A stretch of 64,000 nt of DNA from Octopus vulgaris (Eukaryota), in the NCBI GenBank assembly GCA_951406725.2, contig OX597814.1, positions 165,044,001 through 165,108,000 of the forward strand, in the 5' to 3' direction. The notes beneath the pieces were generated by a model that was given only the letters and a program-made list of their open reading frames with translations, made no database searches and was not told the origin of the DNA. Shown piece by piece: positions 4,835 through 64,000 of the stretch (within the stretch, counting starts at the first letter, position 1; every line of letters begins with the position of its first letter). The translations under genes and the position numbers were made by a program.

Positions 4835-6067
4835 GGTGCGATGGTTAAATTTTCAGCATTTTATATTTTTAATTTCGCGCATACGCATTGCTTATTTTTG
4901 ATTTTGTCGACAGTAGAGTAGAGTAGAGTCAATTGGGCACCATCTGTGAGAAAAATAGCGCCATGTCGCAATTTGCACTGCCAGACATGAAATTTGTACT
5001 GCTTGGTATTCGCGCCGGAAGCTCCAATACGAATCTGAGGCTAGCGCAGCGGATTCGGAAAGAGTTGGATGAGTCTAATGGTGATTACGAAGGTACAGCA
5101 GCTCGGAAAACTTACTCTGATCGTTCTCATAAGGAAAGAACTCCTGAATTTGTTGGTGAAATCGAGGCCAAGATTGACAACAATCCCTCCAAATCAATCA
5201 CAATCAGGTCCATCGCCAGGGACATGGGAGTGTTTGAGTTTCTTATCAGGCAGGTAGTGCATGAACACATTAAGTTTTCTTCATCCAAAATGAGAAAGGG
5301 CCAATTTTTAGCCCACGCCATCAAGGACAACAGGAAAGCCCGCGATACGAAGCTTTTGAACAGACTCAAGTATCTCTTCCAATCGAACATGCTTTGGTTT
5401 TTCTCAGACGAGAAAATGTTTTGCCAGGATCAGATGGTGGCTTGCCTTGTCCCCAAAACATGTACAGAGAGTGATAAATTCAAACATCCAGTTAACATCA
5501 TGGTGTTTGGAGTGATCACTAGTGATGGCGACGGTATTCCTCCATTCATCTTCCCACACGGAATCTTACATCAAGTACCTAGAGGAGTTAGTGCTGCCCT
5601 AGGTCAAGAGGATGGCTGCTGGAAGATCATATGTCCGACACCAGGACGCTGCAGCATGCCACACAAGGAGGAGAACCCAGACATGGCTGTCAGACAATTT
5701 CTGCGACCACATCACCCTTAACATCCGGCTACCTAACACCCCAGACTGCAGCACCACTGATTATTACCTGTGGGGCACAGTTGAGCGAAAGACCAACAAA
5801 ACCTCTTGTAACATCAAAGATGAACTGAAGGCAAGGGTTATGGCAGCATTCACCAACTTAAACAAGGACACTGACCAGAAGAGCTGCACGTGATTCCCAA
5901 GTCGACTGGAAGCCAGGTTGAAGCCAATGGCGATTTTTTATGAATAAATTTACTCTTTAGTATTTCAATATATTTTTATGTAATTTTGGTAAATATATCT
6001 GTTAAAATGAGATGTCAGTATTATTTTCCTTTTTGCATAATTTAGATGACAATTTATTCGACACACA

Positions 6068-11007: not shown

Positions 11008-11173
11008 TCGCTAGCCACTGCACATTCTTTATTTTTTTCTCCTTGTTTCTTTCTGTGGAAGAGCATAGGCTCGAAACGTTAAAGACTTTTTCACTTCCCG
11101 AGCGTTATACTAATACATCTGTTTGTTGTCTACACCACCTGTTTTCGCCTTTTGTTTTTTGTGAATTATTCCT
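11008..11173 (+). mobile_element. Short PLE-like element with minimal hammerhead-like motif (CUGUGGA core)
   Basis: TCTTT-CTGTGGA-A-GAGC-ATAG-GCTC-GAAA-CG-TT-AAAGA at 11048-11085; homologous copies at 15.5, 20.3 and 52.0 kb; ends at a TA-rich repeat. Confidence 0.7.
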
Positions 11174-15489: not shown

Positions 15490-15680
15490 CCATGATAGAT
15501 CGTTAGCCACTACATACATTTATTTCTCTCCTTGTTTCTCTCCTTGTTTATTCTGTGTCCCTTTGTGTAGAAGAGTGCAGGCTCGAAACGTAAAAGACTT
15601 TTTCCATTCCTGAGCTTTATACTAATACATCTGTTTGTTTTGTACACCATCTGACTTCGTCTTTTGCTTTTTTCGTAGAC
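15490..15680 (+). mobile_element. Copy of the short hammerhead-like PLE family
   Basis: Colinear with 11008-11173; motif CTTT-GTGTAGA-A-GAGT..GCTC-GAAA-CG-TA-AAAG at 15561-15596. Confidence 0.7.
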
Positions 15681-15736: not shown

Positions 15737-15739
<3 letters not shown>

Positions 15740-16074
15740 CGGAGATGTACTCGCATAGCAAGTGATTTGATCTGAGATCGTGTGCTGAAACGAAAACAAT
15801 TGCAGCCTGGAAGGTGTTTGTAAGCCATTTAAGAAACACACAAAAGCCGTTCGATTCACTTCAATATTTAAGTTTAATTTGTCAACATATTTTCGTCGCT
15901 AAAATCCGCGACCTGTTCACTGACAAAAATCCGTGCTGCATCTGTCAGTGAACAGGTCGCGGATTTTAGCGACGAAAATATTTTGACAAATTAAACTTAA
16001 ATGTTGAAGTGAATCGAACGGCTTTTGTGTGTTTCTTAAATGGCTTACAAACACCTTCCACGCTGCAATTGTTT
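15737..16074. mobile_element. Fold-back PLE-like element: 132-bp inverted arms, each with a hammerhead-like fold (GUGAACA core)
   Basis: 15794-15925 is the reverse complement of 15943-16074 with few mismatches and a 17-nt spacer; (TA)n on both flanks. Confidence 0.8.
15943..15988 (+). ncRNA. Candidate minimal type I hammerhead with G3:C8 core swap
   Basis: TGTCA-GTGAACA-G-GTCGC-ggatttta-GCGAC-GAAA-ATAT-TT-TGACA: stems I and II are perfect and stem III is the palindrome AAAATATTTT. Confidence 0.6.
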
Positions 16075-16878
16075 ATATATATATATATATATATATATTG
16101 TAACGCCTTTTATTGATTTATTCTACATATGAAATAACAAAGCAGCAAACCCAGTTTATTGTGCACTCTTGTAGATTCCGATTTAAAGATGCAGTCCTAA
16201 TGCCTTTTCAGAAATAATTATGTTAAACATTCTTAGTATAGCCAAACGTGTAGTAATCGAAGCGCTATGCAGCTGAAATTCTTTGCATTAATATAAATAA
16301 TTTGAATTCCATAACGTTTCGCCGATTTTCGATACTACATAATTTTACTGTCGCTAATTCTTGTACTCGGGATAAATTAAGAGTTTCTTGTATTTCCGTT
16401 CAGCAGATATCTTTGACTTTCTGCAAAATCAACCACTTTAAAGAAATACGATCGTGTTTCGCCTGATAAAAGATATGCTTTATAATCAAATATAGATATA
16501 CATATATACAAACATATATGTGTGTACGAGGGTCAAAGAACATATATGTAGACTATTGATTAGTCTATAGGGCTTACAATTATAAGGTTGTAGATTCGAT
16601 TCATAGACCGGGTGGTGTGTTGTGTCATTCAGTAATGCAATTCATTTCATGATACTCCATTATACACTGTTAAAATGAGCATTAATCTTGCGGTTGTAGA
16701 ACTCTTTCTCTCACTCACTGTCATATCCCAGATAGATTGCGGAGTCAAAGCGTACGAGTGCCGAGAGGTTGCCTATAACTGCTTACTACTGACTACACAG
16801 ACACCTACGACAGTTACAGAAAAATCGTACTCGCTTGCAAGTGACGATTATGTGATACATAAATACATACACACACAT

Positions 16879-19431: not shown

Positions 19432-19522
<91 letters not shown>

Positions 19523-19529
<7 letters not shown>

Positions 19530-19802
19530 AAATAATTAAAAGGGCGAGCAACAGGCTGCTTCTCCGCCGTCGTATATGGAATCTCCACTTATAGAAAATG
19601 GAAAAAACAGTCTTTGACTGCCATTTCTAATTCCTTCGGTATGCGGCGAAGCAGCCTGTTGCTCGCCCTTTTAATTATTTTTACTATATACTGAACTTTA
19701 CAAAAGTTCCTGACGATGAATTTGTCATATTTACATACCGAAATTTACCGGTAAATAATTGTTGGTTATATGAAAAACCACTGAAAAATTATTTACCATT
19801 TT

Positions 19803-19808
<6 letters not shown>
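19523..19808 (+). mobile_element. PLE-like remnant: hairpin plus degenerate hammerhead
   Basis: ~42-bp inverted repeat 19523-19562/19648-19689; CTGACGA 19710-19716 ... GAAA-TTTACCGGTAAA-TA 19740-19757; flanked by (TA)n. Confidence 0.5.
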
Positions 19809-19854
<46 letters not shown>

Positions 19855-20244
19855 TGCCCCCACCCTCCGCCTAACCACATACCTCCACCTCTACCTCCAC
19901 CCTCAGTCTAATTCATACCCCACCCTTGCTTTACCCACTCTCGTCTCCCCACCTCCCAACACCATCACACCACATCACACACCACTACACCATTCACCAC
20001 CATGCCACACAACACATCACTTCACAACATACCACCACGCACACACCAGCACTGACCACTTCCCAGACCCACATTTTCCCACCTACACATACACACACGC
20101 ACACGTCAGGATCACCAGCCCTCTTCCACACGCACAAACAAACTTTCTTATACACACACACGCGCACCTTCATTTTGGAATCACCACTACTTTATTATCT
20201 CCCCTTCTACCTAGCTCTCCTGTCTGACTCTTCTGTCCGGCATT

Positions 20245-20417
20245 CGTTATGATAGATCGCTAGCCACTACACATTCTCTATTTTCTCTCCGTGTTTCTTT
20301 CTGTGTTCCTTTCTGTAGAAGAGCGTAGGCTCGAAGTCTGTTTCACTTCCCAAGCGTTATACTAATACATCTGTTTGTTGTCTACACCACCTGTCTTCGT
20401 CTTTTGTTTTTTGTAAA

Positions 20418-22259: not shown

Positions 22260-23065
<806 letters not shown>

Positions 23066-23280: not shown

Positions 23281-23858
23281 TATGCCCTGATGCAGTATAT
23301 GCTCTGATGCCGTATATGCCCTGCTATTGTACCAGGCAGTACCATGGCTTCTGATTGTTCTGCCTGGAAGTGTCGTCATGTACATTGTTTTGTCTTGGGA
23401 TAAAAGATCAGTTACAGCAAATATTCTGCTCAATACCACAGATTTGCTTGTCAGTTGTTTGACTTTAACCAGTTGAGAATGTCCCTTCGTGTGTGACGAT
23501 ATGTGCATCTCTGATCACGAGCAGAAGTAATGGGGGAACATCATAGCCATGTGTTGAGAGGAATTCTTTGGGGTTTGAATAATTCACCTCTGGAAACATA
23601 GTTGTTTCGTTCATCATTCTTAAAGAAACCTTATTCAGGGCCTTTTTGAGCGTGATGGGCTACTCAACCTGATGAAAATTCTAACTGGGCCCCACCTGCA
23701 AGATCATGCGCTGTTTATTTTGACATGAGGTCACCATGTCGATTATATATGGTTGTGATGCGTGTTTCTGGAGTACCTTTATCAGACGGGTAGTCATGAT
23801 AGGTATATTCGGCTTTATATAATTGTACCCCAGTGTCATTTTGATGGCATGAGCTGCT
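23281..23858 (-). mobile_element. ~550-bp (AAT)n-associated non-coding retroposon, copy A (diverged)
   Basis: Colinear with 31667-32215; terminal 17-mer triplicated at 23281-23335. Confidence 0.85.
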
Positions 23859-23859
23859 T

Positions 23860-24989
23860 GGCCTAGACAACTACCTGAAAAACTCAGAGTATTGGATGTT
23901 AAAACTTGTCTCAAAGCATGAAAAAAAGAAAGCATCATACTCAGTAACAAAACAGACAAAGTAATATCTAAGTGAATTCCGAATACAACAAATTCCAGAA
24001 TTAGACGTACTAGAAACAAGCGCAGAAAAAGTTAAGCGCATGAAAACCCGTGCTAAAAATACTGCCTTAGATATTCTAACTGATAAATGGCAAGAAAAAC
24101 CTCTCAAAGAGAGCAAATAATACCGATGTTGACAAAGCCCTTACCCATCAATGGCTAATAGCTTCTGGTTTAAAATCAGAAACAGAAGGATTTATCATAG
24201 CAGCTCAAGATCAATGCCTACCAATAAGAAACTACCAGGCCAACATATAAAATCACGGCAGCTACCCAGTATGTTGTGTATGCCAACAACAAAATGAGAC
24301 CATTGATCATGTCGTTTCCATGTGCAGTTTTCTTGCGCCTATAGAGTATCTCAACACGCATGATAGAGTTGCACAATATATTCACTGGGTAATTTGCAAA
24401 AACCTGGACTTGCCCCATGATAAAAACTGGTGGGAACACAAACCACCACCAGTGCTTGAAAATGATCACATCTCACACTTCTCGAACTTCATCATTCAAA
24501 CTGACAGAAAGATAAATGCGAATAGGCCGGACATAATATTGAAAGACTTCAAACAAATATCATACCTCCTCATTAATATGACTCTCCCAATCGATATAAA
24601 CGTATCTGTCAAGACCTACCAACAACTGAGCAAATATAAAGATCTTGAAATAAAAATTAGCAAAATGTGGATCCTGAAGTCTAAAACAATACCTGTTGTC
24701 ATAGGTGCCCCAGAAATGATAGAAAAAGGGGCTGATTACTACCTAGAAACACCAAAATGGCAGAAATTCAAAAGGTACTGTTCATGGTATAAGTAAAATA
24801 TTTTCTATGTAATCTCAAATTTTTAAAACAAATACATAATTTTACTTATGGTTTCTTAAACATTCTCTAGAACAACACTATATATGGCACCCTAGGCATA
24901 ACACCAAGATGAACTTCTAACTTGTCTCTTGAGGTCTCTGGGTGAGACTTGAAGCCAACTTGTACAGCTGCAAAGCAAATGACAAACAA

Positions 24990-31163: not shown

Positions 31164-36898
<5,735 letters not shown>

Positions 36899-36914
36899 CC
36901 CTTTCATTGTCTTA

Positions 36915-37472
36915 TGCCCTGATGCAGTACCAGGCAGTGGCTCTCGTGGCTTCTGATATTAACTGATTGGAAGTGTCATCATGTACATTGTTTTGTCTTG
37001 GTATAAAAGATGGGCTACAGAAAATATTCTGCTCAGTACCACAAATTTGCTTGTCAGTTGTTTGATCTAAACTAGTTGAGCATGTCCCTTAGGGGCTGAC
37101 GATATGTGCATCTCTGATCACGAGCAGAAGTAGTGGGGGAGCATCATAGCCATGTGTTGAAAGGGATTCTTTGGAGTTTGAATAATTCACCCCTGGAAAC
37201 ATGGGTGTTTCGTTCAACATCCTTAAACAACCCCTATTCAAGGACCTTTTGAGCGGGATGGGCTACTCGACCTGAAGAAATTTCTAACTGGGCCCCACCT
37301 GCAAGGTCATGTGCTGTTTATCTTGATATGAGATCACCATGTCGTGCACACATGGTTGTGATGCATGTGCCTAGTGTACCCTTATCAGACGGGTAGCCAT
37401 GATGGATATACTGGGCTTCATATAATTGTACCCCAGTGTCACTTTGATGCTATGCACTGCTCTCTTTCTCTC
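36915..37472 (-). mobile_element. ~550-bp element, copy F (diverged, intact TGCCCTGATG end)
   Basis: Colinear with C but with many private substitutions. Confidence 0.9.
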
Positions 37473-37795
37473 AATAATAATAATAATAAAAAGAAACGAG
37501 GAAGAAGAAATGTCTAACTAACTTTATTTGGCATTGTACATCTAGCGGTCTTGTCATTACAGTAGCTAGATAGGAATATTCGGAGAAGATAAACAAAACA
37601 AAAAAAAATAGGAAGAAGATAATGATATCACTGGTGATACCGGGACTGTCAACGTCACAGACACTATCTTGGAACCTCTCGTGAGTTTTTATTGCCTGCT
37701 TTCAAGTAAAGAATAACCGGTAATTAAGAACTATCCGAGAGTCTTTCAGAAGAAGAAGAAGAACAACAACAACAACAACAACAACAACAAAAAAG

Positions 37796-38933: not shown

Positions 38934-40040
<1,107 letters not shown>

Positions 40041-40578
40041 TACAGAAATTCTCGGCATATTTTGCGCGCAGAGAGACCGCCTTACCGATTCCACCGAAAG
40101 ATATTTTGAGTAAAATATATTTCCAATTAGCACTAATATATGTTTTGCTGGATAAACAAATAATGTAACTTACCACCTTATTTCTTGGGTGTCAGAAATT
40201 TCCTAGCCACTTTATTGCCGGGATATTTAGGTTGTCCCCCTATTGTCTAACATAATTCGCTATCAGATTGAAACATGATGTTTATGATTTTGAGCAAACG
40301 CCTTTAAAGAATATATATAACGTAAGCAGTTAAAATTCAAACTACAAATACAAGAAAAAATGAAAAGAAAAGTGGTAGATCCTCTCACGGGAGTGGAACC
40401 ACGTATTTGTCAACAGATACATAACTCGACTTAGGTGAAAGTATCAGTCCAGTTATAAATGTCTTGTATATAATTTATATTCGAAATTTATGTTAAATAA
40501 ACCCACACATAAACACATTCAGGCAAATATAGACATGCATACACATGTGCGCGCACACACACATCATCGTCGTCGTCG

Positions 40579-40636
<58 letters not shown>

Positions 40637-40639
<3 letters not shown>

Positions 40640-40830
40640 TTAACATCCGTTTTCCGTGCTGGCATGAATAAGACGGTTTGACAGAGAGTCGACGAGTCTC
40701 AGGGCTCCCTCGAGCCATCTTTGGCATGGTTTCGATGCCTGTACGGCCTTCCTAATGCCAAATAATTGAAAGAACGCAGTGTACCGAGTGCTTATTTTGT
40801 GGCACCGGCACTAGTGAGATTGGCATGTAA
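40637..40830 (-). mobile_element. Short interspersed repeat fragment with (GAT)n tail
   Basis: Unique block tttaacatccgttttcc..ggcatggttt..ccttcctaatgccaa abutting (CAT)n at 40563-40638. Confidence 0.5.
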
Positions 40831-40939
40831 TTTGCAAGAATAACAAAGAAAAAGGAAAAGAAAAAGGTACTACTAATGCATGCATGCATACATACATACA
40901 TACATACATACATACATACATACATACATACATACATAC

Positions 40940-42004
40940 ATACATACATACATACGTGCATCCCTTGACCAAGTTTGCATACATGAGGCTGATAATTTCA
41001 TAAGACTTGGAAGGCAGCTCCTTCAGCAACACTTTTTGTCTGATAACCTAGAATACATGCCCAAAGAAATCGCACGACTCTACCGCAACGTATCATCTGA
41101 TGAAAGGATGAGCCTATATGAGCAGAAGACTATGCATGGATATGTCAGTAGAAAGTTCCGTGATGATTGTAACATCGATCATCAAAGCAGTTTATCATGG
41201 ACCAATAGCTGGATTACTGCCTCACACTTTTAAGGGTATGTATTTGCAATTCAGAAACAGGAAATATTAACCAAGTAACAGATGAACAAAAGGGATAGAG
41301 ATGCAGGAAAAGCCGTAAAATGTGACAACCAATGCAGACTTTGTGGAGTTCACACTGAAGATACCACCCACATCATAAGGAGTTGCCCGAAAATGTCATC
41401 ACGGTATTATCCACCGGTGAGACACGATGTAGCTAGACACTCTATAATGAAATCCGTCGGAAGGATAATCCCGAGGACAAAGAAATAAGAGCCTACAATA
41501 TGGTAGAAGCCATAGCCACTCATAATAAAAAGGAATACTGGTGGAATGTAGCAGTGAAGACCTCAATAAAATGTAAGCACAACAGACCTGATTTGGGCTA
41601 GAGAAGAGAAACTGTGCACAGTTGTGGAAATTAGCTGACCTGCAGATGTTAACACAAAGCTTAAGATCAGTTAAAAAAGAAAGCACCTATGCTGAATTAT
41701 TGAGAAATCTGCAGTTACTCTATCCAGATTACAAGTTCAGGTTCATACCTCTCATCATTGGGGCCCTGAGATATGTGACTCACTGCCTAAATACCAATCT
41801 TGAGAAATTAGGCTTCTCAAAACCAGAAAAGAGAAAGCTAATTCGAAGACTACAGATCCAATCCATCGCTGGAACTGCAAAAATTCTGAGAAACTTTCCT
41901 GAATTTTATCATTTAAATATGAGCATTTCTAGATGTACAACTAGATGTACAACTATTTGCATGAGAATATATACATAAAACATACAAATCTGCACGTACA
42001 TAAA
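40940..42004 (+). mobile_element. 5'-truncated RLE (R4-like) LINE in (ACAT)n, decayed
   Basis: CRLCGVHTEDTTHIIRSC (CCHC), RHDVA, HNRPDL, VVEIS, K..TYAELLRNLQLLYPDYKFRFIPLIIGAL; (ACAT)n on both flanks. Confidence 0.88.
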
Positions 42005-43706: not shown

Positions 43707-43819
43707 ATGTATGTATGTATGTATGTATGTATGTATGTATGTATGTATGTATGTATGTATGTATGCATGTATGTACGTATGTATGTGTATATATATTTTT
43801 TTTTTCAACATGTGATCTC

Positions 43820-44008
43820 TTGAGCACTACCAGCAAAAATATTTTTTTCCTCTGTCTTCCCTTCTCGGGATCTTTCCTTTTCCTTTGTTTCCGACGAAGA
43901 GCTCTGTTCGAAACGTTAAACCCGCCTTCCCTTCTTTCCTGAGCGTCAAATAATACTTTAATTGTTCCTCGCGTTGCTGTGTTTCTTTCTGTGTTTTCTT
44001 GTTTGGAT

Positions 44009-44013
<5 letters not shown>
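43820..44013 (+). mobile_element. Short PLE-like element with minimal hammerhead-like motif (CCGACGA core)
   Basis: GTTT-CCGACGA-A-GAGC-TCT-GTTC-GAAA-CG-TT-AAAC at 43887-43921; downstream cctgagcgt..aatac resembles the 11-kb family; ends at (TA)n. Confidence 0.65.
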
Positions 44014-51948: not shown

Positions 51949-52123
51949 GAGAATTCACACAAAAAAAAAAACAAAAGCCGAAGACAGGTGGTGTAGACAA
52001 CAAGCAGATGTATTAGTTTAACGATCGGGAAGTGAAGAAGTCTTTAACGTTTCGAGCCAACGCTCTTCCACAGAAAAGAACACAGAAAGAAACAAGGAGA
52101 GAAAATAAAGAATGTGTAGTGGC
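51946..52123 (-). mobile_element. Copy of the short hammerhead-like PLE family
   Basis: Minus strand TTT-CTGTGGA-A-GAGC-GTTG-GCTC-GAAA-CG-TT-AAAG at 52042-52076; ends at (TA)n. Confidence 0.75.
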
Positions 52124-52159
52124 TGAATAACAAGAAGTTGATTGTTATTACCGTAAGGT

Positions 52160-52600
52160 GAGATGCGATTGGTCGAGGACGATCACGCAGTGACGCGGTT
52201 TGATATTGGTATATGGGTAACAGTTAGTTGGAAAATACCGCATGGTAAATAGGAAATCAACCGTGTGGTGGAGAGGAAATCTGTCGGGTTGTTAGCAGCT
52301 CTTCTTGTTTGTTCTCGTTGTCCTGTTTGTGTTACCAATTTTGACCCTCCGCAAAATCCCAAGTTTTATTTGATTTGCTTGGCGGGAGCAACTGTTTTAC
52401 AGAAAGCGTATATTGTTGTTAAATTCTCGCAATACGAGAGTATAAAAACAGCCAACAACTGATGAAGGGTCGTTCTTTATGATGTCTTGTTTTCCATTTG
52501 TGTCTTTCGTTGTTCTAAAAATTAGTTAATATTCCATGTACTCGTACTTCGTATTTTTTTTGTTGTACACGTTTGATGACGTCCTATGCCCACATATGCA
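52160..52600 (+). mobile_element. PLE-like terminal repeat homologous to 1140-1470
   Basis: Shared blocks gtcctgtt..ttac..accc.c.gc.aaa..ttttatt.gatttgctt and ctga.gaagggt..gtcct..ca.atatgc; two upstream ATTGG boxes; ends at (TA)n. Confidence 0.6.
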
Positions 52601-61696: not shown

Positions 61697-64000
61697 CAGT
61701 GGTTCTTAACCATTTTACTACCACGCCTCTCCTAGGAATTTGTCCTTCTCTCCACGCCCCCTTGCATCTATAAATAAAATCCACTCCCAGATTTTAAATA
61801 AAATCTAAAATAGGTTTTTAGCTCTTTTATTGAATATGAATTAGCCACATTGAACAAAATATGTATAATTTTATATACAATCACATTATACAAAAAGTGA
61901 GATACTTGACACTGCTTCTTAGCTACAAGATCTTGAATGCGTGATTGAATACCAGAGAGTGACAACGTAAGTTCCTTTCAACGTTCAGCCTGTTTCTGTA
62001 CCTGGTCATGACAGCAACGAGCGTGGAAAATGCAGCTTCACAAAGAGACGTGGATCCAAACATAGCTAAAATCCGAAGAGCCTGATGTGAGATCAGAGGG
62101 TAAATAGAAAGGTACTTGATCCAGAACGTTTCAGGATTCAGTTCTTTGAAGTCTTCCTTAGCTGGGGAAACTCCCTTTCTACTTCATCCAAAACATCAAT
62201 CACTTGACATTGAAACGGTATTCTGATGAATTTACTGGAAAGTATATAATGAATTCTGTTTTCAAGTCGGTTAGTTGAGTGATTATTTGTTTCTTTAACT
62301 CAGAATCAAGGTTACCGCGAGTGAGAGCAGAATCCAAGTAATTAAAACTGGCTGTATTTCCCTGCTGAATTCGACATTTCAAGAGGCCGAGTTTGGCCAC
62401 GAAGGCTCCAATGGTGTGGTGCGTGAGAATGTTGATGTTTTTCCCTTTTAGTTTAAGGCTGAGTGCATCAACCTTTCGAAGATGTCCACCAGGTATGCTA
62501 GAGATACTGGAACTTGTCATGGAGATCTGCCTTCTGCTGCAAATCTAGAAATATTGCTTCTTATTCTCGTAGCTCATAAAGCCGTCCAAGCATGTTTTCT
62601 TTTGATAGCCATCGTACGTTCGTGCGAAAAAGCAATGCTTCATGTTCGGATTCCATATCTTTACACAACAGTTTGAAAAGACGACTGTTTAAGCTCCGTC
62701 TTTAACACAGTTGACAACCTTGATAGCTACGTTCAGGACATTTCTCATTTCAGTAGGGAAGGTTCTGGATGCTAAGGCTTCACGATAAAGTATGCAGTGT
62801 GTAGCTACAAAAGATGGATTTTTTCCTTCACCCTAGTAATGAATCCAGACTGCAGACCAAGCATGGCTGGAGCTTCATCAGTGCACATCCCTACCAGCGA
62901 ATCCCACAAAAGTTGATTTTCCTGAAAGAAGTTTGATACATCACGAAACATAGCTGCTGCTGTTGTACAACTATCCATAGGGTGACAGAACAACATTTCC
63001 TCTTTTACACAATTGCCTGAAACAAAAAGAGCATACACCAGTAGCTGAGCAATGTCAGTCGCTTCGTCTGAGTAATGTCAGTAGCTTCGTCACACTGGAA
63101 TGGTAAAAGCAGGAGAATCTCTTACTTGGTCGGGAATTTGATCTTTTGATGTCTTGAGACAAGTCGTCGATCCTCGCCTTGACTCTATCATTTGATAGTG
63201 AAATCTGGGAAAAAGCTTGTTCGGTCTATCTTCCCCCAGAACGAGTTCTGCTGCACGGAGTAGACTTGGTTTCATGAGAGTCTCTCCGATGTTATGGTTC
63301 TTCTTGCTCTTTGCAATCAACATGGCAATCTCATAGAAAGCCTGAACAACCATTGAAGTTTGTTGCCGAAATGGCCCACTACCGTCCAACTTAGCTTGCT
63401 TCAAGGAATGTCTTTTTGTTTCGAAGACTGGGTTTGTCTGCAAGAGCACGACGTGTTGTCCTCAAGTGGCATTCCAAGCGTGAGGTTTGCATTCCATCAT
63501 TGCTCAAAGTTTTGTAACATATCACAAACTGGGGGACTTCTATGTCACCCTTTTGGGGGGACACAAATCCAAATCGAATATATTCGTCAAGATACTTCCG
63601 ATTTTTAGCACTCATTGCGAAATATTTGATGCGCAGTGGACGACACAAATATGTGAAAAAAAGATAAGACACGTGTAAGGTAATATCAAGACCCAAATTA
63701 GAACGCTTGGAGTAAAAAATTAAAACAAAAAAAAATTGGAATAAAAGTTAAATTAAAAGAAAAGTTATACGAAAAATTTATACAATATTGTATTTATTTG
63801 TTCGAAAATATAAAAAAAAAGTTTCTTTAAAAAGGAAAAGATTTTGCATAGCTTTTAGTTTTACCTAGTACTTTCTGTAATATTTGAATTTGAATTTTAG
63901 TTTAACATTTGGCTTTATATCTAATTTCTTTTCTTACAAAAAATTTACTATATATTTAGCATAAACATTTAATACTAAAAGTTTTGGTTGTAATGTTATA
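61697..64000 (-). mobile_element. hAT (Charlie/Buster group) transposon with frameshifted transposase; other end lies outside the window or is lost
   Basis: TIR CAGTGGTTCTTAACC at 61697; minus ORF pieces RKYLDEYIRFGF..P..VIC..TLSN..M..S.L..HL, EIAMLIAKSKKNHNIGETL, CTDEAPAMLG, HCILYREALAS, FGSTSLCEAAFS, RIQDLVAKKQCQVSH. Confidence 0.92.

Follow-up and report, generated by a model that had tools for sequence, protein, structure and literature searches.

Hammerheads of Penelope-like elements

The closest described relatives of the motif reported here are the minimal hammerhead ribozymes (min-HHRs) of Penelope-like elements, which lack helix III, have a short helix I and carry an extra nucleotide after position 9 and before 10.1 (PMC4209133). 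As presented in that paper, their positions 15.2-16.2 are palindromic, they show low activity as dimers, with canonical min-HHRs cutting poorly in vitro, and most are solitary copies from truncated elements. Dimer cleavage of small Penelope hammerheads is credited to Lunse et al., as cited in PMC6765202. What the hammerhead does for Penelope-like elements has been called unclear (PMC8557442); the same account describes whole Penelope clades without the motif and Naiads without canonical hammerheads, as well as a bias of Neptune toward microsatellite targets, microsatellite targeting fitting both Neptune and Naiad. Work on a purified Penelope system in vitro found insertion to be normal when the hammerhead was mutated, with uncut RNA as the main template; reverse transcription began internally, at sites downstream of the hammerhead, and cleavage depended on the protein of the element (PMC11167929).

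For a natural change of core position 6 there is a precedent in the hammerhead of phage Bcep176, an A6C variant of low activity, below 0.1 per min (PMC3088659), which recovers and cuts well with Mn2+ (PMC7151607). A deep scan of another hammerhead reports low activity for mutants of the CUGA turn except the C3/G8 swap (PMC9901934).

Copies in the window

The window, by which we mean the whole 64,000-nucleotide stretch analysed, is AT-rich (30-45% GC except in one long pure triplet tract) and dense in microsatellites and transposon remnants, as befits an animal-like genome. An earlier note had recorded four dispersed copies of a hammerhead-like motif with U6 and an extra A after A9, and all four are where it placed them: the pattern has four matches at no more than 3 mismatches, and none of 100 shuffles gave any match. 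The one adjustment to its positions is that its 52042 marks the low end of stem I in copy 4. The copies, together with a diverged sister, are as follows.

11008..11172, + strand: repeat copy 1, a 5'-truncated end piece, then a (TA)/(TG) microsatellite
11049..11084, + strand: motif copy 1, min-hammerhead-like; stem I 11049-52/11081-84, stem II 11061-64/11069-72; C3 at 11053, U6 at 11056, extra A at 11060, G12 at 11073, H17 at 11080
15492..15680, + strand: repeat copy 2, the most diverged (76-78% to the others), then (TC)n(TA)n
15561..15596, + strand: motif copy 2, with a private C3G (15565), U6, A7, A17 and a U-G wobble at 10.4
19856..20242, + strand: 5' extension of copy 3, C/A-rich, no evident ORF
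20243..20417, + strand: repeat copy 3, then (TCTA)n(TA)n
20309..20340, + strand: motif copy 3, intact in its 5' half and in stem II; C3 at 20313
43800..44012, + strand: diverged sister repeat, ~72% over the motif region, with a (TA)n end; boundaries approximate
43887..43921, + strand: sister motif, A6 kept, C4, 3-nt loop II
51950..52128, - strand: repeat copy 4, (TA)n at its 3' end
52042..52077, - strand: motif copy 4; stem II 52065-62/52057-54; C3 at 52073, U6 at 52070, N7 at 52069, extra A at 52066, G12 at 52053, H17 at 52046

U6 and the extra A are common to all four family copies, three of which have the CUGUNGA box, the other (copy 2) reading GUGUAGA. The motif is the middle part of a dispersed repeat of 160-190 bp, whose copies are 76-89% identical to each other and stand singly, 4.5-32 kb apart. 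Every window copy of the repeat has a microsatellite at its 3' end, which lies about 90 nt downstream of H17, while the 5' starts of the four family copies lie 45, 55, 73 and ~457 nt upstream of C3. Including the sister, a fixed 3' end at a microsatellite is thus combined with a variable 5' end in 5/5 copies. The same five copies all start at least 72 nt upstream of H17, contrary to the idea that element 5' ends might collect at the predicted cleavage site. No such pile-up is listed in the contigs of four public sequencing runs either, although contigs cannot show RNA ends.

Copy 3 lacks the sequence following GAA, as had been noticed, but it is not cut off there: an 8-nt internal deletion after G12-A13-A14 has removed stem III, the cleavage site and most of the 3' side of stem I, and the repeat then carries on. 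The C/A-rich 5' extension of this copy is probably the 3' UTR of the element; the loose ends of other copies echo only its proximal ~25 nt. The stems pair in 32/32 stem cells with one two-sided change, the outer stem I pair of the sister motif being swapped from C-G to G-C with pairing compensated, but covariation is no stronger than in shuffles (131/500). Where window copies differ in loop II, this is mostly decay private to single copies. With a covariance model made from four copies, none turned up in the window beyond the five, the best extra match (1307-1349) being weak (E 2.2). The region of this match, 1230-1420 on the - strand, has a degenerate GAAACGU motif followed by a CUGAAGA box and a 3' end like that of the U6 family.

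Relationship to minimal hammerheads

The motif shares with the min-HHRs of PMC4209133 a type I layout without helix III, a G10.1-C11.1 pair, palindromic positions 15.2-16.2, a short helix I, an extra nucleotide after A9, a U-rich 5' flank and genomic copies that are mostly solitary. U at position 17, seen in the window family, is common in the published set. The view that this is a hammerhead-derived motif of the dimer type is supported. The 'ultra-minimal' design with its extra A and ACGU stem III, which the earlier note had pointed out, is that of the min-HHRs already in print (PMC4209133). The difference lies at position 6, which is U in the window family and A in 56/56 of the representatives in Fig. 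S3 of that paper, where U3-A8 is the only core variant reported.

Set against the search descriptor of PMC4209133, the window family departs from the first catalytic box, CUGANGA, at position 6 only. The second box, GAAA-N-N-U-H with palindromic 15.2-16.2, is present in 3/4 copies and in the sister, and deleted in copy 3; stem I (3-7 bp), stem II (3-7 bp with G10.1-C11.1), the loop (3-10 nt) and the extra nucleotide are all within the descriptor. We accordingly treat the motif as a min-HHR derivative rather than a consensus member, since it lacks A6, and because CUGANGA was demanded in PMC4209133 such a family would have been missed by design. The minimal architecture is known; we have not found the family-wide A6U core in print. 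No A6U hammerhead came to light in the literature searched, although the alignments of Lunse et al. or the repeat library of PMC13282606 may contain the family.

Exact-pattern scans of viral, genome and metagenome contig collections returned no copies of the U6 family. A relaxed scan gave two loci. One, inside a 692-aa reading frame, was dismissed as a chance match. The other, metagenome locus L001, is without an ORF and has an inverted pair of canonical min-hammerheads (5997-6064); its canonical core matches copy 4 at 21/22 constrained positions from C3 to U16.1, differing at position 6. In the inverted second copy, stem II and its loop equal those of a Neptune-associated min-HHR of the coral Acropora digitifera as given in PMC4209133. 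These two have in common with the window motif a 4-bp stem II, a 4-nt loop and GAAA-CG-U, but have the canonical A6 and other letters in the loop and stem I, and the likeness is known for the motif alone. Taken with the insertion anatomy, the motif makes it likely that the repeat is a Penelope-type element, and its likeness to the Neptune motif together with the microsatellite target indicates that the clade is probably Neptune. The supplement of PMC8557442 does not contain the motif strings. Within the window, Pfam searches gave no matches to reverse transcriptase or GIY-YIG families in 150 of the 266 listed open frames, Rfam hammerhead models are not among the best 150 of 223 matches, which are microsatellite-driven or otherwise sub-threshold, and no tandem or inverted pLTR arrangement is seen for the U6 family.

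The repeat also invites comparison with the non-LTR retrozymes described in bioRxiv 10.64898/2026.07.22.740005, likewise non-coding hammerhead repeats related to Penelope pLTRs. Those are, however, tandem units each with a complete hammerhead, whereas the window copies are solitary with ragged 5' ends; the head-to-tail units with complete type I hammerheads that define a retrozyme do not occur among them.

Abundance and fixation of U6

The copy-4 stretch, or part of it, is present in 22/24 listed public runs, from four organisms and 10 studies. Contigs of four runs were aligned to copy 4 at 80% likeness, giving 8,414, 9,626, 10,195 and 2,242 contigs from organisms A, B, D and B, respectively; the runs are X1, X2, X6 and X15, the last of which may be of RNA. 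Dividing summed depth by the depth of a single long piece gives 2x10^4 to 8x10^4 copies, an estimate to be read as an order of magnitude only (10^4-10^5).

The earlier note's proposal that U6 characterizes the family as a whole is borne out by these contigs. No variant at position 6 appears among the 40 of 51 variant rows listed. For X15, every variant of at least 2% is listed, so that A6 is below 2% there; in X1, X2 and X6, C6 and G6 are each below 2%, and A6 is at most 2.8%, 6.0% and 3.1%, respectively, if the rows are ranked by depth (1, 2 and 2 unlisted A>T rows). U6 is thus essentially fixed in three organisms, 'fixed' referring to the copy-4 family only, as the 80% filter leaves out sister families, the A6 copy at 43887 among them. 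A subfamily in organism A combines two core changes, U4A (window position 52072) on top of A6U; U4A accounts for 8.5% of depth in that organism and 0.1-0.2% elsewhere.

Conservation of core and stems

In the same alignments the core and stems are more conserved than the flanks, in line with what the earlier note had proposed as a check. Leaving out 10 CpG positions, 5 positions at which copy 4 is in the minority and the extra A, variation of at least 2% is seen at 1/23 positions in the core and stems, versus 19/57 in the flanks (Fisher one-sided p=0.0045). The contrast holds at thresholds of 5% and 10% (p=0.01 and 0.005) and against the 3' flank alone (11/39 variable, p=0.02). These figures treat linked positions as independent, rest on 40 of 51 variant rows, carry a reference bias toward copy 4, include a slippage-prone 5' flank and draw on uneven depth, lower over part of the 3' flank. 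A flank stretch of 9 nt (52009-52017) is invariant too. We also considered whether the core might form a helix with the U-rich tract downstream, and dropped this helix when its variants showed no covariation.

The single varying constrained position outside CpG is U4A. Of the free positions, 2/4 vary at 2% or more. Position 7 varies as had been suggested, and at family level (G to U 2.6-21.6%, G to A 2.5-13.6%), and position 17 changes from U to A (1.3-15.6%) with C and G below 2% in all four runs. Loop II, by contrast, is not freely variable, as the earlier note had it, but mostly constant in the family: L2.2 and L2.4 have no variants among the 40 of 51 rows listed, L2.3 is one letter in 85-99% of depth, and L2.1 has a CpG change at 4-28%. 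CpG transitions also occur at G12 (1.4-14.5%) and C11.1 (1.2-7.4%), as expected from decay after insertion. At the CpG shared by 10.4 and L2.1, changes on the loop side outnumber those on the stem side by a factor of 1.5-5 in each of the four runs. Overall, the pattern of variation suggests that the fold of the motif is likely to be kept by selection.

Position 6 and folding

Folding of the 36-nt monomer predicts a U6-A15.1 pair in 3/3 intact copies (P 0.75-0.81), which extends U4-G16.2 and G5-C15.2 into a closed hairpin. Forcing position 6 to be unpaired costs ~1.1 kcal/mol, and the hairpin helix is then largely lost. The prediction is a weak one, worth ~1 kcal/mol, and stems I and II mostly fail to appear when longer contexts are folded; moreover, the pairing is an automatic consequence of A6U and so does not speak for selection. 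When a copy is co-folded freely with itself, an unrelated duplex results, not a dimeric hammerhead, and the ACGU helix alone is predicted to contribute only -1.7 kcal/mol.

Like the Bcep176 ribozyme (PMC3088659, PMC7151607), the window family is a natural substitution at position 6. That case is C6, in a single monomeric phage ribozyme whose measured activity is low in Mg2+ and good in Mn2+, while ours is U6, fixed in a dimer-type motif of a high-copy animal repeat.

Origin and function of the U6 family

Our preferred explanation, to which we give a probability of roughly 0.55, is that the motif is a min-HHR homologue in an abundant, likely Neptune-type family with U6, that it likely cuts poorly or not at all and that its fold is likely under selection. 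The element's endonuclease would nick (TA)n-type microsatellites, and the fixed 3' end would reflect a start of reverse transcription ~90 nt downstream of the motif; the enzyme would then copy uncut RNA through the motif and dissociate at points 45-450 nt upstream of C3, so that solitary stubs remain. Both the constant 3' end and the copying through the cut site agree with the system described in PMC11167929. A6U may have appeared in the source element either before amplification or in its course, and earlier than the separation of organisms A, B and D. It removes a core adenine at which substitution lowers activity, and U4-G5-U6 is predicted to pair with A15.1-C15.2-G16.2 in one molecule; this would compete with the ACGU helix III that two molecules must form for dimer cleavage. 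Selection would most likely act on the motif as a folded, protein-bound element that cuts at most slowly and with the help of protein. In its fullest form, in which A6U closes the RNA of a Penelope family on itself, cutting is lost, the family still reaches tens of thousands of copies in several species with purifying selection on the rest of the core, and the fold is kept for a non-catalytic job such as binding of the element's own protein, we advance this only tentatively.

Between the active dimeric ribozyme and the reverse transcriptase-recognition relic that the earlier note had offered as alternatives, the evidence leans toward weak or lost catalysis, strong attenuation being favoured by the position-6 literature, the U6-A15.1 folding and the U4A subfamily together. 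The near-invariance of C3, G5, G8, A9, A13 and A14 calls for caution, being what continued catalysis would predict, and so do the lack of a reverse transcriptase or GIY-YIG match in the 150 of 266 frames scanned and of any tandem or inverted arrangement of the family in the window. Next in our ranking, and possible though clearly less probable, is a working non-canonical ribozyme that tolerates U6 and, as a pair in tandem transcripts with protein or Mn2+, cuts after H17 at a relevant rate. Besides that near-invariance, while 7 and 17 vary and 17 only from U to A, this could appeal to the activity of the Mn2+-selective A6C variant (PMC3088659, PMC7151607) and to a Penelope hammerhead that cut only with its protein present (PMC11167929). 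Against this stand the frequency of U4A on top of A6U in organism A, the predicted self-pairing of U6, the poor in vitro cutting even of canonical min-HHRs (PMC4209133) and the fact that every genomic copy seen was copied through the uncut site.

At the other extreme the motif might be a dead relic, passively carried, whose apparent conservation is an artefact of alignment or depth or reflects an overlapping DNA signal such as a pLTR promoter. The U-rich, slippage-prone flanks, the variants known from 40 of 51 rows and the invariant flank stretch give this some room, as do the dispensability of hammerhead activity for insertion in vitro (PMC11167929) and the absence of the motif from whole Penelope clades (PMC8557442). 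Yet the conservation contrast survives with the 3' flank alone and at both higher thresholds, the variable motif sites are those that a hammerhead model leaves free (7, 17 and L2.1), and the loop side of the 10.4/L2.1 CpG changes more often than its stem side in every run, so that we think passive carriage improbable. Least probable of all, and very unlikely, is a short SINE- or retrozyme-like element that is non-autonomous, is mobilised in trans and has a 5' end of its own ~70 nt upstream of C3, instead of stubs truncated from an autonomous element. The very high copy number with no ORF seen would suit it, and loose ends at 52124 agree for ~20 nt before becoming mixed (median lengths 18-45 nt), but the window copies have four different starts, tandem units of the retrozyme kind are absent and the loose-end consensus of one run continues like the extension of copy 3.

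Where a core change that is normally harmful has become fixed and the rest is still conserved, 'cuts' can be told apart from 'folds and binds'. Were the non-catalytic reading true, it would be natural evidence that a Penelope hammerhead fold can be kept under purifying selection without cutting; were U6 just slow-cutting, it would add one more tolerated core variant. The family also shows that searches built on CUGANGA miss whole high-copy families. The sister motif at 43887-43921 offers a natural comparison for the U6 family.

Neighbouring elements

Directly after copy 2, at 15739-16075 and between (TA)n tracts, lies a palindromic element, an inverted arrangement in one insertion. A min-hammerhead-like motif is present in each arm; its core pair is exchanged for G3-C8 (G3 at 15948, + strand), stems I and II are 5 bp long each, and stem III is AAUAUU. 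The left arm is longer by ~55 bp that resemble a Penelope 'tail'. The G3-C8 swap is a known engineered rescue, and we found no natural G3-C8 hammerhead in a retrotransposon in the literature searched. The window alone holds three natural core variants: U6, C4 with A6 (the sister motif) and G3-C8.

Two further pieces adjoin family copies. One, at 52129-52600, abuts the 5' end of copy 4 in the opposite orientation and has a canonical CUGAUGA half-core at 52459 with no matching second half; it is probably a terminus from a different Penelope-like family. The other (19520-19810), immediately upstream of copy 3, has an inverted repeat (19520-19690), then a CUGACGA half-core at 19710 and (TA)n, and might be a further Penelope-like end that has suffered a deletion.

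Transposon remnants at 4927-5890, 23684-24793, 39280-41975 and 61926-63747 are mariner-like, two LINE-like and hAT. Among the 150 of 266 frames searched, Pfam gave Dimer_Tnp_hAT in the hAT element and two sub-cut-off zf-RVT matches in the LINE remnants; the first remnant has no Pfam match and is presumed to be mariner-like by resemblance. About 3 kb of pure (AAT)n at 33090-36140, which may be an assembly artefact, lies within an array of ~880-bp units (31165-37495), and these units recur at 23062 and 24990.
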